Below, in pieces: positions 651 to 46,165 of a DNA stretch of 58,927 nt. Every line of letters begins with the position of its first letter. Position 1 is the first letter of the stretch. The stretch lies in NCBI GenBank assembly GCA_016213015.1, contig JACRCE010000057.1:1-58927 (forward strand), written 5' to 3'. The notes under the pieces are model-generated. The model did no database searches. It was not told where the DNA came from and worked only from the letters and a program-made list of their open reading frames with translations. The DNA comes from Deltaproteobacteria bacterium. GTDB taxonomy: Bacteria > Desulfobacterota > GWC2-55-46. The position numbers and the translations under genes were made by a program.

Positions 651-760
651 ACGGTTAAAGAAGGTTCATGGTTGAGAGAAGGTTAAAGGCGGTTCATGGT
701 TAACCTTGAACCGCCTTTAATCGTTTCTTCAACCTTTTTTCAACCGTATCCCAACCTTTC
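651..760. repeat. Heptad-unit palindromic array (GGTTNAN / NTNAACC units)
   Basis: 'AAGGCGGTTCAtggttaaccTTGAACCGCCTT' core flanked by GGTTAAA/GGTTGAG units and their complements. Confidence 0.7.
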
Positions 761-1271: not shown

Positions 1272-1458
1272 AAAATACCGTGACCGTGAACCGTGACCGT
1301 GTGAAAGATTTAAGGAGAGAGCTTCTCTGATCAATTCGCCGACCCGTCATTCTCGCGTAGCGTAGGCTCTCGTTTTTAGAGCTACCCCCCCCTTTTTTCA
1401 CCCCCCCCCTTAATTCCCGCTATCGGGGGATTTTTACGGTCACGGTTCACGGTATTTT
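1272..1458. repeat. Composite: inverted ACCGTGA-unit arms around a family-C fragment
   Basis: Left 'AAAATACCGTGACCGTGAACCGTGACCGT', right 'ACGGTCACGGTTCACGGTATTTT'. Interior carries 'CTCTGATCAATTC..GTCATTCTCGCG'. Confidence 0.75.
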
Positions 1459-8593: not shown

Positions 8594-8668
8594 AACGGTT
8601 ATCGGTTATCAGTGAAGGTAAAAAACAATATCCTTAAACCGATAACCGATAACGGACAATCGATAACT
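8594..8668. repeat. Heptad-unit palindrome (GGTTATC variant)
   Basis: 'CGGTTATCGGTTATC' - 30 nt - 'GATAACCGATAACGG'. Confidence 0.75.
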
Positions 8669-12589: not shown

Positions 12590-13321
12590 ATGGCTTGTAT
12601 TTTATGCTCTGCGAACGGTTATGCCGAGATAGGCGACAAGAGGGGTTATACCATAGTAAAGTGCGTTGGTTGCGGATTCGTTTATACGACGCCGCTCCCG
12701 GCCGAAGATGAGCTTGCAACGCTTACCAAAAAGAAGTCGTCTAATTTCAAACCGCACGTAAGCATCAGCCGGACGATAAGGTATCGCTTTTTCGCATCAA
12801 GCGTCAAGCGGCTCTTTCCGAAGAATAAGAAGATAAGACTGCTTGAGGTCGGGTGCAATCACGGAAATTTTCTCGACGTCATCAAAAAAGACGCGAACTT
12901 TGCAGCAACCGGCATAGACCTTAATCCAGCCGCCTTGGAATATGCGAGAGGCCGGGGACTTGACGCGCGCGACGGTACGTTGGAGTCCCATAACTTCCCG
13001 TCCGGGAGTTTCGACGTTGTAGTGGCGCTCCATGTAATCGAGCATTTCCACGACCCGGTGAGGACATTGTCGGAGATGAACAGGGTTTTGTCGGAAGGCG
13101 GTCTGCTTATTTCTATCGTTCCGTGCGTTACACACATAAAGGCGAGGCTTGCAGGGATCAATTGGAAGTATTTCGGCCCGCCGAGCCATCTATGGTATTT
13201 TTCTCCCGCCACGTTCGCGATGCTCCTTGAAAAGACCGGGTTCACGCCGACGTTTTCTTCCAGTTTCTACAACAGGGCGCATCTGAAGACGATAGCAAAG
13301 AAGGCGAAGCAAATACCGTAA
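12590..13321 (+). CDS. Class I SAM-dependent methyltransferase with an N-terminal Cys4 ribbon
   Basis: 'CILCS...KCVGCGF' followed by 'LLEVGCNHGNF'. The alternative GTG start at 12554 overlaps the end of cheB. Confidence 0.6.
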   Translation: MACILCSANGYAEIGDKRGYTIVKCVGCGFVYTTPLPAEDELATLTKKKSSNFKPHVSISRTIRYRFFASSVKRLFPKNKKIRLLEVGCNHGNFLDVIKKDANFAATGIDLNPAALEYARGRGLDARDGTLESHNFPSGSFDVVVALHVIEHFHDPVRTLSEMNRVLSEGGLLISIVPCVTHIKARLAGINWKYFGPPSHLWYFSPATFAMLLEKTGFTPTFSSSFYNRAHLKTIAKKAKQIP

Positions 13322-13323
13322 AA

Positions 13324-13385
13324 CTACCGTGACCGTTGTCCGTGACCGTAAAAGATTTCTCTTTTACACGGTTCACGGTTTTTTA
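13324..13385. repeat. Heptad-unit palindrome (ACCGTGA variant) between convergent genes
   Basis: 'ACCGTGACCGTTGTCCGTGACCGTAAAAGAtttcTCTTTTACACGGTTCACGGT'. One arm recurs inverted at 44301-44330. Confidence 0.75.
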
Positions 13386-17473: not shown

Positions 17474-17523
17474 AAGGTTGAGAGGCGGTTGAAACCTTGA
17501 ACCGTCGTTAACCTTCGTTAACC
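17474..17523. repeat. Heptad-unit array (GGTTGAN/TTAACC) abutting the radA ATG
   Basis: 'AAGGTTGAGAGGCGGTTGAAACCTTGAACCGTCGTTAACCTTCGTTAACC'. Confidence 0.65.
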
Positions 17524-18882
17524 ATGAACCCTAAGCTGAAAACCATATACTCGTGTCAGTCATGCGGCCATGCGGCGCATAAATGGCTTGGCAGGTGTCC
17601 CGATTGCGGCGGTTGGAACAGCTTTGTCGAGGAGCGCGCGCCTCAAGCGCCGAAGGGGAGATACGTGTCCGGTTCCTCGTCAACGCCGCAGGCCATAACG
17701 CGGCTTGACATGAAGGAGGAGGACAGGATGCCGACCGGCATAGCCGAGCTTGACAGGGTGCTCGGGCACGGTTTGGTTCCGGGTTCGGCCGTGCTCATCG
17801 GCGGGGAACCGGGCATCGGGAAGTCTACCCTCCTATTGCAGGCAATGGGCGCGCTTGCCCGCGCCAATCGCAAGGTGTTGTACGTTACCGGAGAGGAGTC
17901 CATGCGCCAGATAAGGCTCAGGGCCGAGCGTCTCGGCGCGGTTTCGGACAACCTTATCGTCTTTTCTGAGACCTCGGTTGAAAGGGTCTTGGCAGTAATC
18001 AAAGAGATTGCCCCGGACGTAATCGTCATTGATTCCATACAGACCGTTTACAGCGAGGCGCTCGATTCATCGCCCGGGAGCGTTAGTCAGGTGCGCGAGG
18101 CGTCTCACAGGCTCATTACCGTTGCAAAGGCGATGGAAGCGCCGCTGTTCCTCGTAGGACACGTTACAAAGGACGGCGCCATAGCCGGGCCAAAGGTGCT
18201 GGAGCACATGGTTGACACGGTTCTTTATTTCGAGGGCGACAGGGGGCATCTGTTTAGGATATTAAGGGCGGTAAAGAACCGTTTCGGCTCTATAATGGAG
18301 ATAGGCGTCTTTGAGATGCGGCAAAACGGGTTGTGCGAGGTCTTGAATCCGTCCGAGACCTTCCTTGCCGAGAGGCCGGATGGCGCGTCAGGTTCAGCCG
18401 TGGTATCGAGCCTTGAGGGAACAAGAACGATACTCGTGGAGGTGCAATCTCTCGTATGTCCAACGCTTTTCGGGATGCCGAGAAGAACCGTCGCGGGCGT
18501 GGATTATAACAAGGTGATCCTCATCGCCGCCGTGCTGGAGAAAAAGGCGGGCATGGCGCTTGCAAATCACGACATATTCATAAAGGTGGCCGGAGGGATG
18601 CGGCTCGACGAACCCGCGGTTGACCTTGGCGTAGCGGCCTCCATTGCCTCGAATTTCCTTGACAAGCCGGTTGATCCCAAGACCGTTATCATAGGAGAGC
18701 TTGGCCTTGCAGGCGAGGTAAGGGCCGTGAATCAGGTTGAATCCCGGATAAAGGAGGCCGCAAAGCTTGGATTTCAAAGGTGCATCCTCCCAAAGGACAG
18801 CCTCAAGGGTCTTCCCAGCCTCAAGGGGATGACGCTCATTGGCGTAAAGTCCGTGAAAGAGGCGATAGATGCCATGTTCTAA
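17524..18882 (+). CDS. radA: DNA repair protein RadA/Sms
   Basis: Zn ribbon 'CQSCGHAAHKWLGRCPDCGGWNSF', Walker A 'GGEPGIGKST', 'KNRFG', Lon-like C-terminus. Confidence 0.95.
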   Translation: MNPKLKTIYSCQSCGHAAHKWLGRCPDCGGWNSFVEERAPQAPKGRYVSGSSSTPQAITRLDMKEEDRMPTGIAELDRVLGHGLVPGSAVLIGGEPGIGKSTLLLQAMGALARANRKVLYVTGEESMRQIRLRAERLGAVSDNLIVFSETSVERVLAVIKEIAPDVIVIDSIQTVYSEALDSSPGSVSQVREASHRLITVAKAMEAPLFLVGHVTKDGAIAGPKVLEHMVDTVLYFEGDRGHLFRILRAVKNRFGSIMEIGVFEMRQNGLCEVLNPSETFLAERPDGASGSAVVSSLEGTRTILVEVQSLVCPTLFGMPRRTVAGVDYNKVILIAAVLEKKAGMALANHDIFIKVAGGMRLDEPAVDLGVAASIASNFLDKPVDPKTVIIGELGLAGEVRAVNQVESRIKEAAKLGFQRCILPKDSLKGLPSLKGMTLIGVKSVKEAIDAMF

Positions 18883-26045: not shown

Positions 26046-26120
26046 TCGCGCCCAGCACCACTTTGCAATACGAGACTTGTCAAACGATACGCTTTTGTGA
26101 CACGAAGTGGTGCTGGGCGC
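26046..26120. repeat. Hairpin element, family B, copy 1
   Basis: Perfect 17-bp stem CGCGCCCAGCACCACTT / AAGTGGTGCTGGGCGCG around a 41-nt loop. Confidence 0.8.
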
Positions 26121-26163
26121 GAGTCGCCGTGTAACCGGTCTTTCAAGAAAGGTAGACAAAATA

Positions 26164-29395: not shown

Positions 29396-29398
29396 CAG

Positions 29399-29546
29399 TG
29401 CGTAAGAAAAACCAAATGACGTTGAAGGCTACTCAAAAAGCCGTAGATGCGAGGCGGCGAGGAAGCGATGAATGAGACGCACTTTGTTGTGCGTCGCAGT
29501 GAGGAGCGACGAGACAACAAAGCATATGCGGTTTTTTCAGCAGCAT
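29399..29546 (+). repeat. MITE-like element, family A, copy 2 (between flhG and fliA)
   Basis: '...CTCAAAAAGCCGTAGATGCGAGGCGG...GACGCACTTTGTTGTGCGTC...GAGACAACAAAGCATATGCGGTTTTTTCAGC'. Confidence 0.8.
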
Positions 29547-33248: not shown

Positions 33249-33255
33249 GGCGCGT

Positions 33256-33627
33256 ATGGACAAGATGGAAAAGAAGGTGCTGATTATCGACGACTGCGAC
33301 ATGACGAGACGGCTCTTGAGTTACATCGTAAGAGCGAACGGCTACAAGATAATGAGCGCCACCAACGGCTTCGAGGCGCTTGAGATCATGGCGTCGAACC
33401 AGATAGACCTTGTAATCACGGACCTCAACATGCCGCAGATGGACGGGCTTGAGCTTACAAGGAACCTGAGGGCCGGGGAGGCGTACCACGAAATCCCCAT
33501 AATCATGGTGACAACCGAGGGCGGCGATGATAACATAAAAACCGGCATGACCGCCGGAGTGAGCGCCTATCTCGTAAAGCCCTTCAGCGCGCAAAAACTC
33601 CTTTACGAGATGTCGAAGCTGATATGA
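33256..33627 (+). CDS. CheY-like single-domain response regulator
   Basis: 'VLIIDDCDM', '[13 protein letters not shown]', 'MVTTEG', 'LVKPF'. Confidence 0.8.
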
Positions 33628-33683
33628 AGCCGGTATAAATCCCTTTGTTATTATAGTCACCCGCGGTACTATTTTTTTGACAG

Positions 33684-33833
33684 GTTGTAAGAAAAACCCA
33701 ATATTGCCGCAGGTTGCTCAAAAACGCCTAGATGCGAGGCGTCGAGGAGCGACGAATGAGACGCACTTTGTTGTGCGTCGTTCGTTCCGAGCGACGAGAC
33801 AACAAAGCAGATGGGCGTTTTTCAGCAACCTGC
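33684..33833 (+). repeat. MITE-like element, family A, copy 3 (between cheY-like and cheY)
   Basis: Same architecture and orientation as copy 2. Confidence 0.8.
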
Positions 33834-33856
33834 TAAAACTACCGGAGGTTTCAGGC

Positions 33857-34267
33857 ATGTACGACCAGAACATGAAGATACTCGTCGTTGACGACTTCGG
33901 CACCATGAGGAGGATAATCAAGAATATCCTGCTTGAGATCGGCTATCACAACATAGAGGAGGCCGAGGACGGCGAGATCGCCCTTCAGAAATTGAAGGCA
34001 GGCGGCATAGAGTTCGTGATTACCGATTGGAACATGCCCAACATGTCCGGTCTGGAGCTTCTTACCGCCATCAGGCTCGACGAGGCTTTGAAGGGTATTC
34101 CGGTTCTCATGGTAACGGCAGAGGCCGCCAAGGAGAACGTCGTCAACGCGGTGCAGGCAGGGGTGAGCAACTATATCGTCAAGCCGTTTACGGCAACTGT
34201 GCTCAAGGAGCGCGTGGACGCGATACTTGCCAAGGTCAAGGCCGCCCAGAACCAGAAATATAAATAA
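33857..34267 (+). CDS. cheY: Chemotaxis response regulator CheY (enterobacterial-type)
   Basis: '[14 protein letters not shown]', 'EEAEDG..AL.KL.AGG', '[16 protein letters not shown]', '[11 protein letters not shown]', 'IVKPFTA'. The upstream part of the tracked ORF is a repeat. Confidence 0.9.
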
Positions 34268-34306
34268 CGCCGTCGGTCATGTTCCCCTTGAAAGGAGATT
34301 TCAGCT

Positions 34307-34918
34307 ATGCCTGAAACGGAGTGGAGTGAACTCTTAAAACGTGTGAAAGATGAACTGGCGCTTCTCGTCAAGTTCGTGGACAAGACGCGAAACGGGCTTG
34401 ACAGCATCGAGTCCACCGTCAAACTCAGCACGGAAAAGTTTCCCGAGGCATCCCGTCAGATAGACCTCGTTGCCGGCGAGCTTGAGAATGCGGCCAATAA
34501 CATCATTACGCTCCTTGAGTCCATGATGCTGGAACAGGAAAGGACTCAGTACCTTATCAAATCGCTCTCGGAATGGATAAGTTCAGTGAGCGCCGACAAC
34601 AAAGACAAGGCATCTGACGCCATCGGCCAGCTTGGCGCCATAAACATAAAACTTAAAAAAGACCTGATGGAGATATTCTCAAACCTTTCCTTTCAGGACC
34701 TGACCGGCCAAAAATTGAGGAAGGTGATGACCAGCCTTTCATCGGTCGAGACCAGGCTTTTGGAACTTGCGCTCACCTTCGACATCGTAGGGGACAAGGG
34801 CAAGGTTCACAAGGCCAAGAAGGATATGCTCGACGTGCTCAGCGACGCTAAAAAGGAAGAGCCGATGAAATTGAATCAGGAGGTCGTTGATAAGATATTA
34901 AGGGAGCTTGGCGCGTAA
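34307..34918 (+). CDS. cheZ: CheZ-like CheY-P phosphatase
   Basis: Catalytic D-x3-Q in 'LSFQDLTGQKL', size about 200 aa, position directly after cheY. Confidence 0.6.
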   Translation: MPETEWSELLKRVKDELALLVKFVDKTRNGLDSIESTVKLSTEKFPEASRQIDLVAGELENAANNIITLLESMMLEQERTQYLIKSLSEWISSVSADNKDKASDAIGQLGAINIKLKKDLMEIFSNLSFQDLTGQKLRKVMTSLSSVETRLLELALTFDIVGDKGKVHKAKKDMLDVLSDAKKEEPMKLNQEVVDKILRELGA

Positions 34919-34920
34919 AG

Positions 34921-34980
34921 GCCGTGACCGTGAACGGCTAAACGAGATTGCAGCGCGGAGCGAGAACGACCGTGAAAGAT
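34921..34980. repeat. Short chimeric repeat (ACCGTGA units plus a family-C-like core)
   Basis: 'GCCGTGACCGTGAACGGC...GAGATTGCAGCGCGGAGCGAGAACGACCGTGAAAGAT'. Confidence 0.6.
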
Positions 34981-34982
34981 AA

Positions 34983-36653
34983 ATGTCCTTAAACGAGATG
35001 GACGACATTATAAACGACTTCATCGTGGAGGCCGGGGAGACGCTTGACGGCCTTGACAGGAAGTTCCTTGCCCTTGAAAAGTCCCCGCGCGACGCAACCC
35101 TCTTAAACGACATCTTCAGGTCCATGCACACCATCAAGGGAGCGGCCGGGTTTTTAGGCTTCCAGCAGATGGTCGAGGTGTCTCACGTCGCCGAAGACGT
35201 GCTCAACAGGCTCAGAAAAGGCGAGATGGTCGCCGACGCGGCCATAATGGACGCCCTGTTGCATTCCGTTGATATGGTCAAACGCCTCCTCAGAAATATA
35301 AAGGACAAAAATAGCGCTCAGGAGAATATCGAACCGATAACAAACGCGCTCAAGGCCGTGCTTGCACACGCGCCGCATAAGGCGCAAGATGCGGCGAAGC
35401 CGTCCGTGGCAACGCCCTCCGATGCGAAGGAGTCTCAGGAGGCAACGCTCAGGGACAAGGAGACGAGCCTCAGGGTTGATATCGAAAGGCTTGACGCGGT
35501 CTTGAATCTTGCCGGAGAGCTGGTGCTCTCGCGGAACAGGTTGTTGCGCCTCGGCTCAAAGGTTCACGAAAGCAGGCTCGACGACGCGCTTTCCTCGCAG
35601 TTGGGAGAGGCACTCGCCTCGCTTGACCTCGTTACCTCCGATCTGCAGCTTGCGGTGATGAAGATGAGGATGCAGCCCATCGCAAAGGTGTTCAACAGAT
35701 TCCCGCGCATGGTCAGGGACCTTGCCAGACAGCACAACAAGGAAATCGAGCTTGTCGTTACCGGACAGGAGACGGAACTCGACAAGACGGTCATCGAGGA
35801 GATCGGCGATCCGCTGGTGCATCTCATAAGAAATGCGGTTGATCACGGCATGGAGGAGACCGGGGAGCGCGCATCGAAGGGCAAGCCGCGCACCGGCACG
35901 ATACGGTTATCGGCCTCTCAGGAGGGCAGGAACATACTCGTGTCCGTGAGCGACGACGGGCGCGGCATGGACCCGTCGTTGATAAAACGCTCGGCCATGG
36001 ACAAGGGGCTTATATCGGCCGGGGAGGCGGAAGCGCTCTCGGCCAGGGAGGCGTTGAACCTCATATTCATCCCTGGTTTTTCAACCGCCAAGAAGGTGTC
36101 GAACCTTTCAGGGAGAGGCGTGGGCATGGACGTGGTCAAGACCAACATATCGCGCATCAACGGCAGCATCGGCATCGAGTCCGAACCCGGCAAAGGCACG
36201 AAGATAGAGTTCAGGCTGCCTCTGACGCTGGCCATCATACAGGCGCTGACCGTCGAGGTCAACGGAGAGGTCTACGGCATCCCGCTTTCCACGGTCGTCG
36301 AGAATATCAGGATACGAACCGACGAGATAAAGACCGTTAACGGCAAAGAGGTCATCCATCTCAGGAACAGGGTGTTTCCGGTCATGAGGCTCGGCTCGCT
36401 CGTCTCGGCGAGCGAGGTACAGAGAGACTCCGCATGGAAGTATATCGTCATTGCCGGCATAGGAGAGAGGTCATTCGGGCTTCTCGTGGACAAGTTGAAC
36501 GGCCAGGAAGAGATAGTCATGAAGTCGATGGGCGAATATCTCAAGGGCACCGAGGGCATTGCCGGCGCGTGCATCACGGGCGACGGAAACGTAATACTCA
36601 TCCTTGACGTGGCGGGTCTCCTTGAGGCGCTTGCAAGGACGTATGCGTACTGA
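34983..36653 (+). CDS. cheA: Chemotaxis histidine kinase CheA (556 aa, no recognisable P2 domain)
   Basis: Hpt 'FRSMHTIKGAAG'. 'DPLVHLIRNAVDHGME', 'GRGVGMDVV', P5 CheW-like. Only about 40 aa link Hpt to P3. Confidence 0.9.
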   Translation: MSLNEMDDIINDFIVEAGETLDGLDRKFLALEKSPRDATLLNDIFRSMHTIKGAAGFLGFQQMVEVSHVAEDVLNRLRKGEMVADAAIMDALLHSVDMVKRLLRNIKDKNSAQENIEPITNALKAVLAHAPHKAQDAAKPSVATPSDAKESQEATLRDKETSLRVDIERLDAVLNLAGELVLSRNRLLRLGSKVHESRLDDALSSQLGEALASLDLVTSDLQLAVMKMRMQPIAKVFNRFPRMVRDLARQHNKEIELVVTGQETELDKTVIEEIGDPLVHLIRNAVDHGMEETGERASKGKPRTGTIRLSASQEGRNILVSVSDDGRGMDPSLIKRSAMDKGLISAGEAEALSAREALNLIFIPGFSTAKKVSNLSGRGVGMDVVKTNISRINGSIGIESEPGKGTKIEFRLPLTLAIIQALTVEVNGEVYGIPLSTVVENIRIRTDEIKTVNGKEVIHLRNRVFPVMRLGSLVSASEVQRDSAWKYIVIAGIGERSFGLLVDKLNGQEEIVMKSMGEYLKGTEGIAGACITGDGNVILILDVAGLLEALARTYAY

Positions 36654-36654
36654 C

Positions 36655-36690
36655 GAAGGTTAGAGACGGTTGAGAAACGGTTGAAGAAGG
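36655..36690. repeat. Heptad-unit array (GGTTGAN) between cheA and cheB
   Basis: 'GAAGGTTAGAGACGGTTGAGAAACGGTTGAAGAAGG'. Confidence 0.55.
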
Positions 36691-36698
36691 AAGATTAA

Positions 36699-37745
36699 GT
36701 GCCCAAATTAAAAGTGCTCATCGTTGACGACTCAGCGTTCATGCGCAGGGTCTTAAAGCAGATGTTGGAGACGGACCCGTATATAGAGGTGGCAGGCTCT
36801 GCCCGTGATGGCGCCGAAGGCGTGGAGATGTGCGCTTCTCTTTCTCCTGACGTGGTAACGATGGACGTCGAGATGCCCAAGATGGACGGGCTTGAGGCGA
36901 CCCGTCTGATAATGGAGAGGTTTCCGACGCCGATATTGATCGTCAGTTCCCTTACTCTGGAAGGCGCGCAGGCGACGTTCGACGCCCTTGACAGGGGAGC
37001 CGTGGACTATATCTCAAAAAACCTCGTCTCGTCGGCGGTGGACGTCTTGAAGATTCAGGACGAACTCATCGCCAAGGTAAAGGCGGTCGGGCACAGGGGA
37101 AAGACCGGGCGTTGGCTAAGGGCATTCAGAAAACCGGACGCGCCCGTAATCGTCAACAAACGTTACGGCACGCAAAAGATCGGCTTTGTGGCGATAGGCG
37201 CTTCAACGGGCGGGCCAAGAGCCATTCAGGAGGTGCTCTCCCACCTGCCTGCCGACCTCGATACGCCTTTCTTGATCGCTGTGCACATGCCAAAGGCGTT
37301 TACCGGTTCATTCGCGGAACGCCTCGACACGCTATGTAAACTCCCGGTCAAGGAGGCCGAGCACGGCGAGATTATAAGGACGAGGCAGGTGCTTTTAAGT
37401 CCCGGAGGGTCGCAAACAAGGATTAAAAGAAAAGGCGGCACGAATTTTTGCGTTGACATATCCGACGACCCGCATGATGCGCTGTACAGACCCTCCGTTG
37501 ACATCTCCATGAGTTCGATAGCCGATTGTTATCCGGGACGCTCGCTCGGCGTGATATTGACCGGCATGGGACATGACGGAGTCGAAGGCATGAAGGCCAT
37601 CAAGGAGCGCGGAGGCAAGACCATAGCGCAGGACGCCGAGACAAGCACGATATTCGGAATGCCAAAGGCGGTAATAGACGCGGGTATGGCGGATAAGGTG
37701 CTCGCCCTCGACAAGATTGCCGCTGAGATTGTCAACATGATATGA
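36699..37745 (+). CDS. cheB: Chemotaxis methylesterase/response regulator CheB
   Basis: GTG start. 'VLIVDDS...VVTMDVEMPKMDG', 'VAIGASTGG', 'TGMGHDG'. Confidence 0.9.
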   Translation: MPKLKVLIVDDSAFMRRVLKQMLETDPYIEVAGSARDGAEGVEMCASLSPDVVTMDVEMPKMDGLEATRLIMERFPTPILIVSSLTLEGAQATFDALDRGAVDYISKNLVSSAVDVLKIQDELIAKVKAVGHRGKTGRWLRAFRKPDAPVIVNKRYGTQKIGFVAIGASTGGPRAIQEVLSHLPADLDTPFLIAVHMPKAFTGSFAERLDTLCKLPVKEAEHGEIIRTRQVLLSPGGSQTRIKRKGGTNFCVDISDDPHDALYRPSVDISMSSIADCYPGRSLGVILTGMGHDGVEGMKAIKERGGKTIAQDAETSTIFGMPKAVIDAGMADKVLALDKIAAEIVNMI

Positions 37746-37803
37746 ATGTGCTATGCTTACAGTGAATGCACTCTTTTTTGTGCATGACAGAATCGTTGTA
37801 AAT

Positions 37804-37866
37804 ACCGTGTCAATGACCGTTGGCCGTTAAAAATTTTTTCACGGCTCACGGTCACGGTTCACGGCC
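37804..37866. repeat. Heptad-unit palindrome (CACGGT variant) between cheB and cheW
   Basis: 'ACCGTGTCAATGACCGTTGGCCGTTaaaaattttttCACGGCTCACGGTCACGGTTCACGGCC'. Confidence 0.7.
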
Positions 37867-37885
37867 TTTTAGAGAGGAGGCTGAT

Positions 37886-38359
37886 ATGGAGGCTGCAAAG
37901 GAAAAAGAGGTCTTGCAACTCGTTACATTCAGGCTTGGACAGGAGGAGTTTTCTCTCGACATATTGAAGGTTCAGGAGATAATACGCCACATGGAGCTTA
38001 CGCGCGTTCCGAGGACGCCGGATTTCGTGGAGGGCGTAATAAACCTGAGGGGCAGGGTGATACCGGTGCTTGACCTTAGAAAAAGGTTCGGACTGCCGGG
38101 CGCCGAGGATACGAGCGCCACGCGGATAATCGTGGTCGAGGTCTCCGGCGTTACCGTGGGACTCAAGGTTGACGGCGTGTCCGAGGTCTTACGCATCAAC
38201 GCCGACACGGTCGAGCCGCCGCCCGCGCTGGTTACGAACATCGAGTCCGACTACATAAAAGGCGTCGGGAAACTCGACAACCGGCTGCTTATACTGCTTG
38301 ATGTTTCCAAGATACTAAGCAGATCCGAAAAGGACGCGCTCGGCAAGGTGGTTGTTTAA
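37886..38359 (+). CDS. cheW: Chemotaxis coupling protein CheW
   Basis: ATG 37886 follows GAGAGGAGG. 'LVTFRLGQEEFSLDILKVQEI...VPRTPDFVEGVINLRGRVIPVLD'. Confidence 0.9.
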   Translation: MEAAKEKEVLQLVTFRLGQEEFSLDILKVQEIIRHMELTRVPRTPDFVEGVINLRGRVIPVLDLRKRFGLPGAEDTSATRIIVVEVSGVTVGLKVDGVSEVLRINADTVEPPPALVTNIESDYIKGVGKLDNRLLILLDVSKILSRSEKDALGKVVV

Positions 38360-38362
38360 TAG

Positions 38363-38560
38363 GTTGTTGAAAAAGCAAATATTGACAAAGGCTGTTCAAA
38401 AAGCCGCAGATGCGAGGCGGCAAGGAGCGACGAATGAGCCCAGCACCACTTTGTTGCACGAGGGAATTTGTCAAGCAACATGCTTTCGTAATCCAAAGTG
38501 GTGCTGGGCGCAGTTCTGAGCGACGAGACAACAAAGCAGATGCGGCTTTTTCAACAGCCG
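38363..38560 (+). repeat. MITE-like element, family A, copy 4 (between cheW and mcp), centre replaced by a family-B hairpin
   Basis: Family A arms flank nt 38438-38509. Confidence 0.8.
38438..38509. repeat. Hairpin element, family B, copy 2 (inside family A copy 4)
   Basis: 16-bp stem GCCCAGCACCACTTTG / CAAAGTGGTGCTGGGC with a 40-nt loop related to the copy 1 loop. Confidence 0.8.
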
Positions 38561-38582
38561 TCTAAGGAACCAAGGAGGTTTT

Positions 38583-40664
38583 ATGAGCATACAATCGGTC
38601 AAGGCAAGGCTGTTGGGGAGCTATCTTTTCCTCATACTTCTTTTTATCATCCAGATACCCATAGTCTATCTTCTCGTTGTGCAGATGAGCAAGAAATACG
38701 CGCAGATAGTCGAGGTGGCCGCGTTAAGAAAACGCTCGATCGAGATAAACTATGTCCTGAACCGGCATATCATGAACAGGGAGGACGCGCTTGAAGAGGT
38801 CTTTCAAACGAAGATGGCCGAGTTCGATCAGACGCTTGTCAGGTTGAAGACCGGCTGGGGAGAGGTGCCGCCGATAACCGGCGAAGCCTCTCTCGACAAG
38901 TATAACGGCGTCATGCAGAAGTGGACGCCCATGCGCTCGACGCTCAATGCCGCGATGGACGCTGGCGATAAGCTGAGGGAGAGCATGAACGAACTGGATG
39001 CCGGCGCGTTCCCGTTCATCGGCAAGTTGAACGAGATAGTCGCGGGTTTCAGCGTTCTCAAGGACGGCGGGAACGGGAAAAGGGTGGATGTAGCCGGCGC
39101 TCAGAGGATGAAGACCATGAAGCTTGCGTACCTTCTGGAGCGATATGCGCGGTCCAACGATAAGCTCGATGAAATCGGCGCGCAGATAGACGATACCATG
39201 AAGGACCTTGAAATCAACTACGCGGCGCTTAAAAACGGTTCCGTTGCGCTCAAAATTTCGCCGCTCAAGGATAGGGCACTACTCAACAAATTCGTCGAAG
39301 CCGAGGCCGTATATGCCAAGAGAAAGGCGCTCATCCTTTCCACGATGGAATATAAGAGCGATTTCAGCAAGTTCACCAACGAGCTTTCAAACGTGCATAC
39401 CCCGCAGATGATAGCCGCGACAGAGGCGCTTACCGCCGAAATAGTCGCAGGGGCCGTCAACTCGGCCATGAAGGGCGTACTGTTCATGGCGCTTGTGCTT
39501 GTCGTCTCGGCCGGATGCGCCGCGTTTTTCATCTGGATGACCAATCATCAGGTGTTGACGCCCATCCTCACGATAAAGGAGACGGTGGACGGTTTTGCGA
39601 GCGGCGATCTGTCGCTTAGGTCGGGTGTGAAGGTAACGCTCCTCGGCAAGGAGTTGAATGACGAGATAACCGGATTGAGCAACAGCGTTGACTCGATGGC
39701 GATACGGATGTCCTCCGTCATAGGCAGGATAACCGATTCGTCGAGCCAGCTTGCCTCGGCCGCCGAGGAACTCGCCGCGTCATCCACGCAGATAGCCTCC
39801 GGGGCCGATAAACAGTCGGGGCAGACCGTGCAGGTCGCCTCTGCCATGGAGGAGATGAACGCCACGGTCGTCGAGGTAGCCAAGAATTCGCAGCAGGTTT
39901 CAGACGCGGCCAAGAGCGCACAAGACATCGCCCTTAAAGGCGGCACGGTAGTCAATCAGGCTGTCAGCGCGATGCAGGAGGTCTCCGTTTCAACCAATAT
40001 GACGGCGGACACCATAAGGAAGCTCGGCAAAGGCTCGGAGGAGATAGGCAGTATCGTGTCGGTCATCAACGACATCGCGGACCAGACGAACCTTCTCGCT
40101 CTCAACGCGGCCATAGAGGCCGCAAGGGCCGGGGAGCAGGGCAGGGGTTTTGCGGTAGTCGCGGACGAGGTGAGAAAACTCGCGGAGAGGACCACAAAGG
40201 CCACAAAAGAGATAAGCGAGATGATAAAGGCCATACAGTCCGAAACGACCAAGGCCGTTACAGCGATGGGCGAGGGGGCCTCAAAGGTCGAAAACGGCGT
40301 GAGGCTGGCCAATGAGGCGGGCGATTCGTTGAAGAGCATAGTCAAGAGCGTCGAGTACGTGAGCGGCATGATAACGCATATCGCCACGAGCGCCGAGGAG
40401 CAAAGCTCCACGACCGACGAGATAACGCAGAACATGGACTCTATCGCCGAGGTCGCAAAGGGCAACGTGGCCGCGATAGCCGAGGTGTCCCGCGCAACCA
40501 CGGACATGGCGCGTCTGGCCTCCGAACTAAAGGAGCTTGTTACGGGCTTCAAGACGCGCGGGCAAGGCGTCGTGGTGCCTATTCGCGATAAGCCGCGGGA
40601 CGCGGGTAACGCAATGGCCGGATCGGGCCTGAGCGCGGCCTCGCTTTTGACGAGAAAAGGCTGA
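38583..40664 (+). CDS. mcp: Methyl-accepting chemotaxis protein (large periplasmic helical sensor, HAMP)
   Basis: '[36 protein letters not shown]'. AAGGAGG RBS. Confidence 0.9.
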
Positions 40665-40669
40665 TAGGA

Positions 40670-40765
40670 ATGTTAAAGGCGGTTGAGGTAAGAAGGTTGA
40701 GAAGAAGGTTCAAGGTTAACCCTGAACTTTTTTCAACCCTGAACCATCGTTAACCATCTTAACCT
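40670..40765. repeat. Heptad-unit palindromic array between mcp and the FlgM-like gene
   Basis: 'GGCGGTTGAGGTAAGAAGGTTGAGAAGAAGGTTCAAGGTTAACCCTGAAC...CAACCCTGAACCATCGTTAACCATCTTAACC'. Confidence 0.7.
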
Positions 40766-40792
40766 TAAAGTTTCCGGCGCGATTGCCGATAA
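40766..40792 (+). promoter_or_regulatory. Sigma-28 (FliA) promoter upstream of the FlgM-like gene
   Basis: TAAAGTTT-N11-GCCGATAA, an exact match to the enterobacterial consensus. Confidence 0.75.
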
Positions 40793-40849
40793 AAAGATAT
40801 GGGAAGCGTCAACTGGATTGCGTACAGCCTGGTGATAAAGAAAGACACG

Positions 40850-41110
40850 ATGAAAAACGACGTAATCATAATAAACGCGCAACCGGCTGCGGTTAAGAGA
40901 AAGGCCGGGAATGACCAACGTACGAGCGCCGTCGGATACGCGGCGATGGACGCCCCGATAGATACATTCGAGGGCAGGGAGCGCGACAAGTTCTTGTTCG
41001 GTCTCAAGACGAATATCGCCTGCGGCGCTTACGCGATAAAACCGGAGCTTATCGCCGAAAGGCTGATAGAGGCGTCATTAGCATGCGTTTTGCGCCGAAG
41101 AACGCTTTGA
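40850..41110 (+). CDS. flgM: FlgM-like anti-sigma-28 factor (tentative)
   Basis: Size is 86 aa. C-terminal 'LKTNIACGAYAIKPELIAERLIE' resembles the FlgM sigma-28-binding helices. A consensus sigma-28 promoter lies directly upstream. The alternative start at 40799 would be near-leaderless. Confidence 0.5.
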   Translation: MKNDVIIINAQPAAVKRKAGNDQRTSAVGYAAMDAPIDTFEGRERDKFLFGLKTNIACGAYAIKPELIAERLIEASLACVLRRRTL

Positions 41111-41144
41111 ATTTAGATTCGATTTGGCGGACATTTACCCGACT

Positions 41145-42731
41145 ATGACTATCCAGACGAGGATAATGCTTGTAGACGACGACGATGCGGTGCGCGAAGT
41201 CATCAGCGAGATGCTGTCGAGGAAAGGTTGGCTGGTAACTGAGTTCAGCGACGCCGAGCAGGCGCTTTGCGAGCTTGGCTCCAACAGATACTCTCTGATC
41301 CTCGCCGATATAAACATGCCGGGACTAAACGGCATGGAATTTCTCGAGAGGGCCAAGGAACTTGCCTGCGGCGTTCCGGTCGTTATGATAACCGGGTATC
41401 CGTCCATAGACCTCGCCGTCGAGGCCATGAAGGTAGGGGCCGTTGATTTTCTCTCCAAGCCCTTCAAGGCCGAAGAGCTTGAGATAACGGTAAGGAAGGC
41501 CATTGACGGGGCAAGGGTTTTCAACTCCAATCAGGCGGCTGACGGAACGGACGCCGCTTTGTCCGTACGCGCGTTGCCTGACGTGGCCAAACACAGGCTT
41601 GAGGACAAGATAAAGGAATTATCCATACTGCATACGATAAGCGAAACTCTCGACGAGGTGACTGAGCGCGACGAAATCTATAGAAAGACCATGGACCTGG
41701 GGCTGATCATCGCCGACGCGACCAGCTCATTCATCATGGCTGTCGAGCATGGCGGCGCCGAGTTTTCCATGCGCGCAAGCACCGGATTCGGGGCGGCCGG
41801 CCCTGTAACCGGAATCAGGGTCATGGCGGATGAGGAGCCGTTCAGAAGCGTCATAAAAAACAGGTGCTACTCTTATCTGTTGCCGGACGAGGATACTCAC
41901 GCTCGTTTTTGCGCGGATGTTTACGGAGGCCCCCGTCGAAGGCCGCTCCTTCTCGTGCCGATGATGATAAACAAGGAGGTGGTTTCGCTCCTCGGCCTCA
42001 ACTGCAGGGAGAGCGTGCTGGAACTCAAAAGCGACTCCGTTGCGCTTTTGTCCAATCTGGCGGCAAAGGCGTCCCTCAAGCTGGAAAATATAACCCTTTC
42101 CGAAAACATCTTTTCAAGCATAGTAGGCGCGATAGATTCGCTCATCAACGCGCTTGACGCGAAAGATACCTACACGAAAGATCATTCAAACAGGGTAACC
42201 CAGTATGCGCTTAAGATAGCCAGAGCGCTCGGATGCAAGAATGAAGTGATCAACAGCATCGGCTTCGCCGGGCCGCTTCACGATATAGGAAAGATAGGCG
42301 TAAGGGACGACATCCTGCTGAAAAAGGGCGGTTTTACGATAAACGAACGCGAACTGATGAGGCTCCACGTCCTGCGCGGCGAGGAGATATTGCGCCCGTT
42401 GAATCTCATGTCAACCGAAAAAGAGGTCGTCCTGTATCATCACGAACGCTGGGACGGCAACGGGTATCCGAACGGCCTGTCGGCGAGGAACATCCCTTTG
42501 GCCGCAAGGGTATTCAGCGTGGCGGACACTTACGACGCCATGACCTCGACACGTCCGTACAGGAGCGCCTTGAGCGCCGAAGTCGCGCGCGATGAAATAT
42601 GGAGATGCAAGGGCACGCAGTTCGATCCTGAGGTGGTAAACGCCTTTATGGAGTGCGGCATCCTTACCCCGGAAGGCGGCAGGCCCATTGATCTGATGAT
42701 CCATCCTGACAGGTTGGCGAGACATCATTGA
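41145..42731 (+). CDS. Response regulator with GAF-like and HD-GYP domains (RpfG-like)
   Basis: 'IMLVDDDD...LILADINMPGLNG', 'HSNRVTQYAL', 'PLHDIGKIGV', 'HHERWDGNGYP'. Confidence 0.85.
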   Translation: MTIQTRIMLVDDDDAVREVISEMLSRKGWLVTEFSDAEQALCELGSNRYSLILADINMPGLNGMEFLERAKELACGVPVVMITGYPSIDLAVEAMKVGAVDFLSKPFKAEELEITVRKAIDGARVFNSNQAADGTDAALSVRALPDVAKHRLEDKIKELSILHTISETLDEVTERDEIYRKTMDLGLIIADATSSFIMAVEHGGAEFSMRASTGFGAAGPVTGIRVMADEEPFRSVIKNRCYSYLLPDEDTHARFCADVYGGPRRRPLLLVPMMINKEVVSLLGLNCRESVLELKSDSVALLSNLAAKASLKLENITLSENIFSSIVGAIDSLINALDAKDTYTKDHSNRVTQYALKIARALGCKNEVINSIGFAGPLHDIGKIGVRDDILLKKGGFTINERELMRLHVLRGEEILRPLNLMSTEKEVVLYHHERWDGNGYPNGLSARNIPLAARVFSVADTYDAMTSTRPYRSALSAEVARDEIWRCKGTQFDPEVVNAFMECGILTPEGGRPIDLMIHPDRLARHH

Positions 42732-42733
42732 AG

Positions 42734-42806
42734 ATGGTTGAAAAACGGTTTAGGGCTATCCTTTAACCGCCTTTCAACCTTGAACCGTCTCTCAACCCTG
42801 AACCCT
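42734..42806. repeat. Heptad-unit palindromic array upstream of tilS
   Basis: 'GGTTGAAAAACGGTTTAGGG...TTTAACCGCCTTTCAACCTTGAACCGTCTCTCAACCCTGAACC'. Confidence 0.7.
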
Positions 42807-42852
42807 CTCTTGTTAATCCCGCCTCAAAGTAATATAATGCCCGTCAAACCTA

Positions 42853-44253
42853 ATGAAAAGAGAGAAGCTCGTCCTAAAAGTCCGTCGTGCGATCGAGAAC
42901 AACGCCATGCTCAAGGCGGGCGAGGTAATCGTTTGTGCCGTTTCAGGCGGCATTGATTCCGTTGTCATGCTGTATGTCCTTGCGTCCTTGAAGGATGAGT
43001 ATTCCCTTAAGCTCGTGGTCGCTCACCTGAACCATAACCTGAGAGGGGCCGAGTCTCAGCGCGAGATGGCCTTTACAAAGGCGCTTGCAAAACGGTTCGG
43101 AGCGCGTTTCCATGCAAAGACTCTTAAGGAAGGCGCGCTGGGCAGCGCATCCGTTCAGGAGGCGGCAAGGCTTGAGCGAAGGAGGTTTCTTGAGCAAACG
43201 GCCATGAAGTTCAAGGCGGCCGGCGTGGCAACCGGGCATAACCTCGACGATCAGGCCGAGACAATGCTGATGAGGCTTATAAAGGGGGCCTCTCTTTCCG
43301 GGCTTGCCGGTATCCGATTGAAAAGGGGCATGTTCATCAGACCGCTCCTCGACGTGTCAAGGGCTGAGATTGAAAGCTACGCAAAGGCCAATGGCATCGA
43401 GTATGTCGTTGATTCGTCGAATATGACCGACAAATACCTGCGTAACGACGTTAGGCATCATCTGATGTGTTACATTAGAAGGCGATACAACCCGAATATC
43501 GCCGAGACCATCGCAAGGACGGCAAGCCTTCTGAGGGCGGATGAGGAGTATATCGGCAGGGAGGCTCAAAAGGCATTTCAAGACGCCTTGATAACGACCG
43601 ACTCTAAAACGATAACGCTCGATGTTGACAAACTTGTTGGACTGCACAGCGCGATAGTTTCAAGGGTGTATCTTTCCGCGGTCCATTTTTTGATAGGTGA
43701 TTCAAAGAGTTATAGCCATTATGTAAAGCAGTTTATTGATTTGATAAAATCCTCAGGGCCCAATGCCGTCTTACGTCAGCCGGGTGTATGGTCAGAAAGA
43801 AATTATACGCGGGTTACGATTACGAGCAAGGCGCCGTTGAGGTCTGAGTTTCGTCGGATAGAACTTGCAGTGCCGGGACTTACTGTCTTTAAGGGAGCGG
43901 GCATCGGCATCAAGGCCGAGATAGTCGCGGTCGGGCGCGTTCCAGAGCGTTTTTTGCCGGACGAGGCAACGGCGTACTTCGATTACGATATGATGCCGAG
44001 GTGTAATCTTGTGGCAAGGCCCATGCTTGCAGGCGACCGGATAGTTCCATTCGGTTTGGCCGGAACCAAGAAGGTCAAAGATTTGTACATTGACAAGAAG
44101 GTCCCTGCTTTCCAACGGCGCGTCATTCCTCTTATCCTAAGCGGAGAGGATATCTTATGGATACCCGGCGTGAAAAGGTCTGATCTGTACAGACTCTCAG
44201 GGACAACGAAGCGCGTGTTGAAGCTGGTTAAGACCGTGAACCGTGACCGTTGA
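42853..44253 (+). CDS. tilS: tRNA(Ile)-lysidine synthetase TilS
   Basis: PP-loop 'CAVSGGIDS', 'ATGHNLDDQAET', and C-terminal 'LYIDKKVP...RVIPLI'. Confidence 0.9.
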   Translation: MKREKLVLKVRRAIENNAMLKAGEVIVCAVSGGIDSVVMLYVLASLKDEYSLKLVVAHLNHNLRGAESQREMAFTKALAKRFGARFHAKTLKEGALGSASVQEAARLERRRFLEQTAMKFKAAGVATGHNLDDQAETMLMRLIKGASLSGLAGIRLKRGMFIRPLLDVSRAEIESYAKANGIEYVVDSSNMTDKYLRNDVRHHLMCYIRRRYNPNIAETIARTASLLRADEEYIGREAQKAFQDALITTDSKTITLDVDKLVGLHSAIVSRVYLSAVHFLIGDSKSYSHYVKQFIDLIKSSGPNAVLRQPGVWSERNYTRVTITSKAPLRSEFRRIELAVPGLTVFKGAGIGIKAEIVAVGRVPERFLPDEATAYFDYDMMPRCNLVARPMLAGDRIVPFGLAGTKKVKDLYIDKKVPAFQRRVIPLILSGEDILWIPGVKRSDLYRLSGTTKRVLKLVKTVNRDR

Positions 44254-44349
44254 CCGTGTAAAGGCCGTGAACCGCGACCGTGAACCGTGTAAAAAAGAAA
44301 TCTTTTACGGTCACGGACAACGGTCACGATAGTTTCACGATTCACGGAC
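44232..44349. repeat. Largest ACCGTGA-unit palindromic array; it covers the tilS stop
   Basis: 'ACCGTGAACCGTGACCGTTGACCGTG..GCCGTGAACCGCGACCGTGAACCGTG' then 'TTACGGTCACGGACAACGGTCACG..TTTCACGATTCACGG'. Confidence 0.8.
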
Positions 44350-44441
44350 ATGATCGCGGTCTTTGGAGCTTTTTTCTTGCGGGATTGGATGCGCTTTTGA
44401 TAAGATAATATAATTTACCAATAGTCTGCGGGGTGAGCGCG

Positions 44442-44945
44442 ATGTTGATCTCTTATAAGGGCATAATGCCCAAGGTGCATGAAACCGTATATATCGAAGA
44501 GAGCGCCAAGGTCATAGGCGACGTCGAGATAGGGGAGTTGTCCAGCATCTGGTTCAACGCGGTTGTCAGGGGCGACGTCAACTACATACGCATCGGCAGA
44601 CGCACGAACGTGCAGGACAACTGCACCTTGCACGTTACAAAGGACACCTGCCCGCTCATCATAGGCGATGAGATAACCATCGGGCACAACGTAACCCTGC
44701 ACGGCTGCGTGGTCAGGGACAGATGCCTTATCGGCATGGGCGCAATCGTGCTCGACAACGCGGACATAGGCTCTGACTCGATAATCGGCGCTGGAAGCGT
44801 GGTTACCGAGGGCGCGAAGATACCGCCGGAGAGCCTTGTCATGGGCATACCCGGGAAAGTGGTGCGCCGACTGAAGCCGGATGAGATCGCGCGCATCAAA
44901 AAGTCGGCGGCCAATTATATCGAGTATGTGAAGGATTATCGGTAA
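44442..44945 (+). CDS. Gamma-carbonic-anhydrase-like hexapeptide-repeat protein
   Basis: 'VIGDVEIGE.SSIWFNAVVRGDVN.IRIG..TNVQDN..LH'. Alternative GTG start at 44433. Confidence 0.8.
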   Translation: MLISYKGIMPKVHETVYIEESAKVIGDVEIGELSSIWFNAVVRGDVNYIRIGRRTNVQDNCTLHVTKDTCPLIIGDEITIGHNVTLHGCVVRDRCLIGMGAIVLDNADIGSDSIIGAGSVVTEGAKIPPESLVMGIPGKVVRRLKPDEIARIKKSAANYIEYVKDYR

Positions 44946-44977
44946 TTATCCGTAAATTCTTTTGAGCACGGTGAATC

Positions 44978-46165
44978 ATGTTAAACGACGGCGAATTGAC
45001 AGCGTCATTGCAAGATATCGAGTCGGACAGGGTTGAGCGAAAAGCCTCCGTCTCTGATAGGAAAGAGATAAAACAGGCAATCTGCGCCTTTGCTAATGAC
45101 ATGTCGAATTCTAAAATGCCGGGCGTCATCTTTATTGGTGTACATAATGACGGTGGTTGTTCCAACCTGCCGATAACCGACGAATTGTTGCTCATGCTGT
45201 CGGATATGCGATCGAACGGTAATATATTACCGTTTCCAATAATGTCGGTGCAAAAAAAGATGTTAAATGGTTGCGCGATGGCCGTTATAGAGGTGGAGCC
45301 GTCCGATGAAACTCCCGTTAGATTAGACGGCCGGGTGTGGATACGCATTGGCCCAAGCAGGAGAACGGCAACCTCGGCTGAGGAACGAGCGTTATCGGAA
45401 AAAAGGCGAAGCAATAATCTTCCGTTCGATCATCGTCCGTTGAAGGGTTCGTCATTGGAGGAGCTTGATCTCGATTTTTTCAAGCGCGAATACCTGCCAA
45501 ATGCAGTTGACCGTGATGTCCTTGAGCAGAATCAGCGTACGATAAACGAGCAACTTGCATCAGTGCGTTTTCTAACCGCTGATGGGATTCCAACCGTTGT
45601 AGCCATGCTCGTTATCGGTAAAGACCCGCGTAAGTGGCTGCCATGCGCGTACATTCAATTCTTACGCATTGACGGGGTTGATATAACCGACCCCATATTG
45701 AATCAGCGGGAGATAAGCGGCCCGTTGACGGAAGTCTTGTTAAACCTTGATGATCTTCTTAAAATCAATATTTTCACTTCCAGCGATGTCTCTCAATCAA
45801 CCACGGAGATAAAACACCCGGATTTTCCAATCGTTGCGCTTCAACAGTTAAGCCGTAATGCCGTCATGCACAGGGCTTATGAACACACAAATGCGCCGGT
45901 TCGCATTAATTGGTTTGCGGACAGGATCGAGATTTCCAACCCCGGCGGATTGTACGGGCAGGTCACCCAAGAAAATTTCGGCAAAGGGCAGACTGATTAT
46001 CGTAATCCTGTTCTTTCCGAGGCTATGAAGACGCTTGGGTTCGTACAACGTTTTGGGATGGGGATACCGCTTGCCAAGAAAGAGCTTCATGAGAATGGCA
46101 ATCCTGAACCGGAATTCAGTTTCGATGGCAATAACGTCCTTGCGATTATCAGAAAACGGCAATGA
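44978..46165 (+). CDS. AlbA_2 (Schlafen-like DNA-binding) plus HATPase_c_4-type putative regulator
   Basis: N-terminal 'ESDRVERKAS' type motif, and C-terminal 'NAVMHRAYE...I.NPGGL' resembling the RecG-like/HATPase_c_4 family. Recognised from memory of the family only. Confidence 0.5.
   Translation: MLNDGELTASLQDIESDRVERKASVSDRKEIKQAICAFANDMSNSKMPGVIFIGVHNDGGCSNLPITDELLLMLSDMRSNGNILPFPIMSVQKKMLNGCAMAVIEVEPSDETPVRLDGRVWIRIGPSRRTATSAEERALSEKRRSNNLPFDHRPLKGSSLEELDLDFFKREYLPNAVDRDVLEQNQRTINEQLASVRFLTADGIPTVVAMLVIGKDPRKWLPCAYIQFLRIDGVDITDPILNQREISGPLTEVLLNLDDLLKINIFTSSDVSQSTTEIKHPDFPIVALQQLSRNAVMHRAYEHTNAPVRINWFADRIEISNPGGLYGQVTQENFGKGQTDYRNPVLSEAMKTLGFVQRFGMGIPLAKKELHENGNPEPEFSFDGNNVLAIIRKRQ

Follow-up and report, generated by a model that had tools for sequence, protein, structure and literature searches.

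Dispersed tandem heptamers have been catalogued for more than 30 years in cyanobacteria, Xanthomonas and Geobacter and, to our knowledge, have no assigned origin, mechanism or associated gene; the short tandemly repeated repetitive (STRR) heptamers of Calothrix are a further example. We likewise know of no function outside diversity-generating retroelements for PF05635, a large protein family with a solved structure. Among the closest described systems is the 23S rRNA intervening sequence (IVS) of Coxiella, in which an S23p open reading frame (ORF) lies within a stem cleaved by RNase III and containing heptameric repeats in variable number (PMC4990558). The PF05635 family has been recognised as Avd-like (PMC10053308), and its genes are also found scattered inside cas operons (PMC3936711). 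Arrays without a gene are represented by the GGGAATC repeats of Xanthomonas and the GGGGAYT repeats of Nostoc, those of Xanthomonas including inverted arrays (PMC4692102), and by the inverted arrays of Geobacter metallireducens termed 'predicted global regulator binding sites' classes 1-3, for which binding of IHF/HU was proposed (PMC2700814). Here we analyse a 58,927-nucleotide contig of a deltaproteobacterium (JACRCE010000057.1, the whole of which we refer to as the window), where eleven spacers carry hairpin-forming heptamer arrays. We conclude that these loci are probably gene-less derivatives of IVS-like heptamer-hairpin cassettes that bear a PF05635/TIGR02436 four-helix-bundle gene, one of which is present elsewhere in the same genome.

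Results

Three families of hairpin element

The window is contig C21 of an assembly from a groundwater bacterium (G000; 2.27 Mb in 117 contigs, 54% G+C, 98.7% complete). A genome-wide census of repeat chains revealed about 110 hairpin-forming elements belonging to three related families. F1 has the form (CCGTGA/CCGTGAA)n, an apex of AAAGA-GAAA-TCTTT or variants thereof, and (TCACGG)n, and numbers about 72 copies (some 73 loci passed the filter, of which 72 were analysed). In F2, GGTTCAN units alternate with GGTTGAGAGAC-type units and are followed by their complements. F3 consists of (CGGTTAT)n, an asymmetric core GGTTTAAGGATAATTATTCTTTCACCTTCAC, and then (GATAACC)n; F2 and F3 jointly account for about 40 loci. 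The initial annotation of the window, made from its sequence, had described a single set of units with a uniform 7-nt periodicity. Three families take the place of that set, with the GGTTCAC/GGTCACG units listed there forming the right arm of the CCGTGA family, and only F3 shows a plain period of 7. Unit spacing in F1 alternates between 7 and 6 nt, creating a 13-nt di-unit (spacing pairs: (7,6) plus (6,7), 145; (6,6), 27; (7,7), 7), and in F2 between 7 and 10-12 nt. The shared (C)GGTT/AACC(G) core that had been proposed holds in so far as a CGGT core is common to F1, F2 and F3 and the apical module is common to F1 and F3, but F1 carries that core in the opposite polarity with respect to its hairpin.

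Arms hold 2-8 units, most commonly 4-5, and equal numbers in both arms were observed in only 18 of the 72 F1 copies. Built of tandem repeats, the two arms can pair in alternative registers, and copies with unequal arms would therefore still fold. Conservation stops about 6 bases beyond the outermost unit, with a weak terminal consensus, tAAAGRCCGTG, on either side.

Bulk over-representation of 7-mers was uninformative, the elements being a small share of the genome. We took each 4-mer, collected chains of at least three occurrences at 6-12 nt spacing and compared their number with a simulated genome. ACGG, CCGT, ACCG and CGGT stood out, with 75-125 chains against 5-17 simulated, and the families are 10-20 times as frequent as in Markov-simulated genomes. 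Within the window the motif CCGTGN{1,2}CCGTG was counted 13 times where shuffles predict 0.16; the enrichment over background on which the initial annotation depended is thus borne out both locally and genome-wide. For the order of the chains, pairs up to 80 nt apart were compared with order-3 Markov genomes. CCGT chains are followed by ACGG chains 88 times (4-7 simulated) and the reverse order is seen 10 times (4-13 simulated); for GGTT followed by AACC the count is 46 (2 simulated), and for the reverse 4 (1-6 simulated). Arm polarity is fixed in each family.

Tandem Repeats Finder and an inverted-repeat finder independently recovered most of the window loci, and Rfam gave no match in the whole window at gathering thresholds. 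Nearly all true copies are intergenic, with the calls 'inside a gene' being chance matches or over-extended ORFs. The units are 6-11 nt long and abut one another, unlike those of a CRISPR array, whose direct repeats of 23-50 nt alternate with unique spacers of comparable length; this agrees with the initial view that these are not CRISPR arrays.

A PF05635 gene in the hairpin loop

One F1 copy carries a gene. At positions 2312-2740 of contig C107, between mlaE-like and mlaF-like genes, we observed an F1 left arm, a ribosome-binding site, an ORF of 119 amino acids and an F1 right arm, both arms being made of CCGTGA(A)/TCACGG units. The ORF scores 118 bits to the TIGR02436 four-helix-bundle model and 124.8 bits to PF05635, has a sub-threshold match to Avd (E = 7e-4) and is one of two PF05635 genes in the genome. 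The nearest solved relative of its product is the pentameric XCC0516 (PDB 2gsc, E = 1e-17). The gene family of the cassette is S23p/IVP, distantly Avd-like, and its design is that of the ORF-bearing 23S rRNA intervening sequences. The cassette and the gene-less copies alike are paired inverted arrays of approximately 7-nt units able to form a long stem. Their arm units are also the same, and at this one site the two forms have interconverted, as the orthologue in a congeneric genome (G001, syntenic with the window at 83-92% identity in the flanks) keeps the arms around a degenerate interior that lacks the ORF. The loop of gene-less F1 copies, ...AGAGAAA-TCTTTTACGG, resembles the GGAGAAA that precedes the start codon of the C107 gene and the GTCTTAACGG that follows its stop codon, and this likeness to the edges of the gene would fit derivation by loss of the ORF.

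Immediately upstream, the last 18-22 or so nt of the mlaE-like gene (TATGTCGTCAATGATGG[CGTAA]) are doubled in both species (C107:2100-2330; G001, locus L029, 5500-5610). The doubled end brackets a small F1 hairpin, which in G000 is disrupted by another miniature inverted-repeat transposable element (MITE), and may be either a long duplication made by insertion or a local tandem duplication. Elsewhere in this draft assembly, F1 arm pairs 80-2500 nt apart enclose ordinary genes or a toxin-antitoxin pair, leaving the four-helix-bundle gene as the only clean loop ORF. The toxin-antitoxin pair (nucleotidyltransferase/DUF86, MNT/HepT-like; C41:7060-8070) has a solo F1 left arm on one side and a complete F1 hairpin on the other.

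The association extends to other arm types. In a related genus (genome G016) a PF05635 gene lies between GGTTATC and GATAACC arrays, which are of F3 type, and its product is sister to the C107 protein with support of 100/99. The second PF05635 gene of G000, on contig C60, has flanking arms of a fourth heptamer type, AGTGGNN / NCTGACC. This last cassette (C60, approximately 8500-9450; locus L049 1109-3298, minus strand) is located inside a DNA-methylase-like ORF of 729 amino acids with a DPTCGSGTT motif, which stays open across the entire cassette in another frame. Two more stretches of the methylase-like protein (…SEQCSVGSKKPNTDHRSLTTDHQPLATGH…, …DRGQCSVDSKTGHRPLTTDH…) resemble hairpins of this heptamer type, without a gene, that have been translated.

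Of 301 genomes sampled from the phylum, 153 had genes of the PF05635 family. We compared the 110-nt flanks of 30 such genes, from 29 genomes, with those of 27 neighbouring control genes. An inverted repeat between the two flanks (z > 5) was found for 16 of the 30 genes and for none of the 27 controls. Strong tandem repeats occurred in at least one flank of 17 of the 30, against 3 of the controls, with a period of 7 in 24 of the 25 strong flanks. Placed on the protein tree, the heptamer class, as assigned by eye, changes 6 times, against a mean of 16.6 and a minimum of 12 in shuffles. Single classes span up to five host families, the unit sequence tracking the protein clade and not the host taxon. 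As heptamer class follows the protein tree across host families, ORF and arms form one co-inherited, horizontally distributed unit.

The eleven loci of the window

All eleven spacers that the initial annotation had singled out do contain heptamer-type arrays followed by their reverse complements. The long imperfect palindrome ascribed to each is seen at most of them; 34921-34980 is a degenerate remnant and 36655-36690 retains a left arm only. The loci are as follows, with no strand assigned to any of them.

44232..44349, F1 hairpin, the focal element: left arm of seven CCGTGA-type units, apical module GTAAAAAAGAAATCTTTTAC, right arm of three to five TCACGG-type units
1272..1458, F1 hairpin with a nested insertion: other repeat DNA, some 130 nt long, sits in the apex
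13316..13385, F1 hairpin between convergent genes: one arm identical, in inverted orientation, to 44300-44328
37804..37866, F1 hairpin 3' of a cheB-like gene: empty in G001, which has a 16-nt spacer only
34921..34980, F1 remnant, degenerate: the left-arm units persist with a single stray CCGTGA, the intact right arm missing
651..760, F2 hairpin: GGTTNAN alternating with GGTTRARRRRC-type units, then complements
17474..17530, F2 hairpin in a divergent (promoter-side) spacer: reaches and covers the start codon of the gene downstream
36655..36690, F2 half element: a left arm alone, located between cheA-like and cheB-like genes
40670..40765, F2 hairpin 3' of a methyl-accepting chemotaxis protein gene: G001 holds a different element
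42734..42806, F2 hairpin 3' of a response-regulator/HD-GYP-like gene: G001 has 92 nt of unrelated sequence
8594..8668, F3 hairpin: (CGGTTAT)2, asymmetric core AGTGAAGGTAAAAAACAATATCCTTAAACC, then (GATAACC)n

None of the eleven copies has an ORF in its loop, and we therefore class them as gene-less derivatives and not as full members of the cassette group. The exact recurrence of one arm in inverted orientation had been reported, and the 29-mer concerned is present at 44300-44328, one base away from the coordinates first given, with 0 matches in shuffles.

The focal element folds stably both as RNA (-45 kcal/mol, z -4.1) and as DNA (-31.1 kcal/mol, z -5.3). The stop codon of a tilS-like gene (44251-44253) lies within its left arm. 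The encoded protein (window 44220-44253) ends …KLVKTVNRDR* inside the element, and the tilS-like gene of G001 runs into another repeat. The ancestral C-terminal tail of TilS, present in other genera, is lost in both G000 and G001.

Taking raw positions and disregarding the number and size of spacers, the loci concentrate in two che clusters (1-13400 and 33000-44400; approximately 25 kb), with 17474..17530 falling outside those ranges and no other locus in the remaining 34 kb or so. Further spacers of the window (24559-24725, 38360-38582 and 29396-29544) carry unrelated repeat families, examples being GGAAGCTCTGATTAATTC…GAATTAATCAGAGA and an inverted pair of CCCAGCACCACTTTG at 38435-38512 and 26037-26131.

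Turnover between congeneric genomes

Ten of the window sites could be compared with G001, and at none of them do the two genomes share the same element. Three are empty in G001: 1272-1458, cleanly and without target duplication; 36655-36690, where 13 nt of spacer are found; and 37804-37866. The remaining sites are occupied in G001 by another family, by some other repeat or by sequence that is unrelated. Thus 8594..8668 corresponds to an F1 element with other repeats, 34921..34980 to an F3 element, 17474..17530 to an F1 element with a nested tip insert, 13316..13385 to an unrelated 61-nt spacer and the focal site to a different palindromic repeat. At 31 further sites anchored by their flanks, the same family is retained at about 15, absent at about 6 and replaced by something else at about 10. 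Retained orthologues often differ in unit number, apex or nested insert, and they gather changes that break pairing, as at position 18450 of contig C74.

The arrays are present on other contigs of the same genome and in other genomes; the initial annotation had held that they should not be confined to this contig. In a comparison of 40 relatives, F1 was found in G000, G001, G005 and G024 and not in G015, which belongs to the genus of G024. F2 was found in G000 and the distant G037 with hardly any in G001, and F3 is more widely spread within the host family. A search of 185,579 species genomes for an exact 25-mer of F1 units gave matches in just a few metagenome-assembled genomes (MAGs) of 'Deltaproteobacteria'/Thermodesulfobacteriota from groundwater. 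On the evidence of these alignments the elements are gained, lost and replaced between congeneric genomes. The lack of shared elements at the window sites, the filled and empty pairs and the patchy spread together mark this as insertional DNA of fast turnover and not a set of conserved cis-regulatory sites of the che operons.

The F1 apex is a preferred site for nested repeats. A tip module of about 30-45 nt, GTCCCCCTGATAAGGGGGAYTTAGGGGGTTGA, is located exactly at the apex in several G000 and many G001 copies. The nested-tip loci are window 1302-1436, C26:9336-9456, C81:10528-10610, C90:5046-5122, C90:9050-9127 and, in G001, for example L013 2722-2804. One orthologous pair is filled in G001 and empty in G000 (C104:4682), and in G001 hairpins whose arms are of GCGTGAT type carry the module as well. 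A motif of about 30 nt, of CCCCCTGATAAGGGGG type, is likewise seen at the apex of several F1 hairpins. At another site (C13:9724-9782; G001 C45:3278-3644, L086) the core GGTGAAGGNGAAAAATA…TCCTTAAACC is conserved and the arms differ, being composed of GGTTCAA/GGTTCAT units in G000 and CGGTTAT units in G001. Here it looks as if arm units were exchanged or converted around a constant core.

One alternative is that the elements are repetitive extragenic palindromes (REP) or their paired form, the REPIN, which are copied as single-stranded hairpins by a domesticated IS200-like tyrosine transposase, the REP-associated tyrosine transposase (RAYT). The initial annotation had suggested REP-like elements, and the suggestion is sound as far as it describes dispersed, intergenic palindromes of fast turnover, here in roughly 100 copies. 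Their empty sites are free of target-site duplication, as would be expected of HUH enzymes, and other repeats insert preferentially into them. No consensus of REP type is present, however, and a search for a RAYT or IS200-like gene using Y1_Tnp (PF01797) found no match in G000 or in G024, both of which are rich in copies, and weak matches in G001 and G005. The arms are arrays of variable unit number and order rather than a fixed palindrome of 20-40 nt with a conserved head, and the sole relative with an ORF carries the four-helix-bundle gene and not a RAYT. We consider a REP/REPIN origin highly improbable.

The weak terminal consensus found on both sides would be compatible with classical MITEs, that is, deletion derivatives of an insertion sequence with a DDE transposase, mobilised in trans through terminal inverted repeats. 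We observed no target-site duplication at the filled and empty pairs 1272-1458, C74:20042 and C115:33512, and the flank is unconserved beyond position -6. Arm length and unit number vary between copies, and in the draft assembly the arm pairs 80-2500 nt apart never enclose a transposase. The terminal T and A of F1 are conserved in only 42% and 58% of copies, values on which we also rejected an IS630-like TA target duplication. A MITE origin for these elements has very little to recommend it. Retro-mobility by a diversity-generating retroelement was rejected as well, there being no match to RVT_1 in G000, G001 or G005.

A different reading is that the arrays are selected by the host as binding sites for a DNA- or RNA-binding protein, such as a nucleoid protein, a global regulator or the four-helix-bundle pentamer, and that the hairpin is secondary. 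The 54 of 72 F1 copies with unequal arms and the several half elements would fit arrays of sites better than a strictly selected stem. Fixed polarity and the co-variation of heptamer class with protein clade are also in keeping with such binding, as is the IHF/HU proposal made for G. metallireducens (PMC2700814). Yet the sites are not conserved between congeners even within conserved operons, the mean period of 6.5 nt does not match the helical repeat of duplex DNA, and some genomes rich in arrays have no candidate protein, the binding being purely putative. Host-selected binding arrays are, in our estimation, a doubtful explanation.

Orientation, genomic context and RNA folding

Elements at cistron boundaries often begin within a few bases of the stop codon and fold very stably, at about -0.43 kcal/mol per nt. 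This raised the question of whether they are functional RNA modules of operons, which would stabilise, process or terminate transcripts between cistrons and in this way adjust the stoichiometry among che products. REP elements and bacterial interspersed mosaic elements (BIMEs) in Escherichia coli operons provide a precedent. We classified 58 copies by spacer, of which 41 lie between co-directional, 5 between convergent and 12 between divergent genes, a split near that of the background spacers of 40 nt or more (681, 180 and 206, respectively). For the 41 co-directional copies the mean RNA fold was -37.6 kcal/mol in the sense and -37.7 kcal/mol in the antisense direction, the sense strand being the more stable in 20 copies and the antisense in 21. 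The asymmetric apex was oriented 20:18 relative to transcription. These copies show neither an orientation bias nor a sense-strand G-U advantage, and strand-specific RNA elements were rejected on the equal folds and the apex facing either way.

A scan of positions 33000-46000 for intrinsic terminators (a GC-rich stem followed by at least 5 T in 8) flagged none of the F1 elements and one F2 core marginally, with a total not above shuffles. This agrees with the initial observation that most elements have no clear U-tract, their tails reading YTTTW, and intrinsic terminators were rejected as not flagged and missing the tract. A role as RNA modules is also opposed by the copies in divergent spacers, by orthologous copies that change without preserving pairing (C74:18450 versus G001) and by congeners that have no element at the same operon junctions. 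We regard this explanation as very unlikely.

Discussion

The reading that we prefer, in which the window loci are gene-less derivatives of PF05635 cassettes, combines the shared arm units, the site at which the gene-bearing and gene-less forms are orthologous and the wider linkage of the gene family to heptamer arms. We infer that the elements are selfish or near-neutral insertions and not gene-specific regulators. When transcribed within operons, for example in the two che clusters, either strand would give an RNA stem of 25-40 bp. By analogy with the Coxiella IVS the stem may be a substrate for RNase III, and cleavage could cut or buffer the polycistronic mRNA at cistron boundaries; RNase III-sensitive stems at these boundaries are likely on that analogy.

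Several points weigh against this interpretation. Only one of the approximately 110 elements in the genome carries the gene, and an F2-armed PF05635 gene was found in none of the genomes examined. Mobility is deduced from genome comparison, in which neither an enzyme of spread nor a target duplication or insertion footprint was identified, and some sites resemble replacement or recombination more than simple insertion. RNase III processing is an extrapolation from the rRNA IVS, gene calls were crude (greedy selection of the longest ORF) and the heptamer classes on the tree were called by eye. G001 and G024 are rich in F1/F3 arrays and have no detectable PF05635 gene, both being fragmented MAGs; this speaks against the protein being strictly required in trans, provided that the gene is not simply missing from the assemblies.

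That last point bears on a bolder proposal, that heptamer arrays and PF05635 pentamers form one genetic system. The protein would bind its own arm units on single-stranded DNA or RNA, with about one unit per subunit, and promote the copying or insertion of the hairpin, such that the single gene-bearing F1 copy on C107 could amplify dozens of gene-less F1 hairpins in trans. We offer this tentatively, as a possibility that is rather unlikely at present. If true, it would define a new class of non-transposase, structure-dependent mobile element, and it would also explain the rRNA intervening sequences, the cyanobacterial and Xanthomonas heptamers and read-through insertions such as that in the C60 methylase.

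We add four things to the record: a genome where gene-less copies have multiplied to about 110, one orthologous site that has the gene in one species and lacks it in the other, sites that are filled in one of the two species and empty in the other, and searches for RAYT, reverse transcriptase, target duplication and strand bias that were all negative. As one genome joins a family of empty hairpins with a gene copy in the same arms, both the function of PF05635 and the origin of heptamer repeats become approachable by experiment. On the practical side, the elements break MAG assemblies, extend or replace gene ends, as at the C-terminus of TilS, and invite confusion with regulatory sites or CRISPR-like arrays.

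Comparison with known systems

In the searchable literature we found no link of dispersed gene-less heptamer hairpins to PF05635 cassettes. Very small elements reportedly sit at the hairpin tips of host repeats, including tandem heptameric ones, in Nostoc punctiforme (Elhai et al. 2008), which we take as a lead only; the phylum and the sequences differ from those described here. REP/BIME and REPIN elements with their RAYT are, like ours, multi-copy extragenic hairpin palindromes that show no target duplication, serve as targets for other mobile DNA and possibly affect mRNA stability (PMC3116915). They differ in having a RAYT and a fixed REP, where the present elements have variable tandem arms and an associated four-helix-bundle gene.

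Closer in form are classes 1-3 of G. metallireducens, which are pairs of arrays on opposite strands with 3-5 tandem repeats of 7-9 nt in tens of copies. They too are intergenic, including at operon junctions, and lineage-specific, with insertion sequences landing adjacent to them (PMC2700814). Their unit sequences are different, no gene-bearing form is reported and IHF/HU binding is a proposal (PMC2700814). The Xanthomonas and Nostoc repeats are also dispersed, mostly intergenic tandem heptamers whose length varies between related genomes, and in Xanthomonas 70-75 convergent inverted pairs are able to form hairpins (PMC4692102). Those units are rich in G and were investigated for their ability to form G-quadruplexes, with no link drawn to PF05635 (PMC4692102), whereas the units here have no G-runs. 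Between two Xanthomonas species 83% of the repeats are positionally conserved (PMC4692102), and turnover in the elements described here is much faster.

The closest counterpart is the 23S rRNA IVS of Coxiella burnetii and Leptospira, itself proposed to be a selfish, once-mobile element (PMC4990558). The elements that we describe lie between protein-coding genes and not in rRNA, they form families of about 40-70 copies, and some 99% of the copies have lost the ORF or never had it. In both systems a long stem of variable tandem heptamers surrounds a PF05635 gene (PMC4990558), and the F1 copy on C107 has exactly this arrangement.

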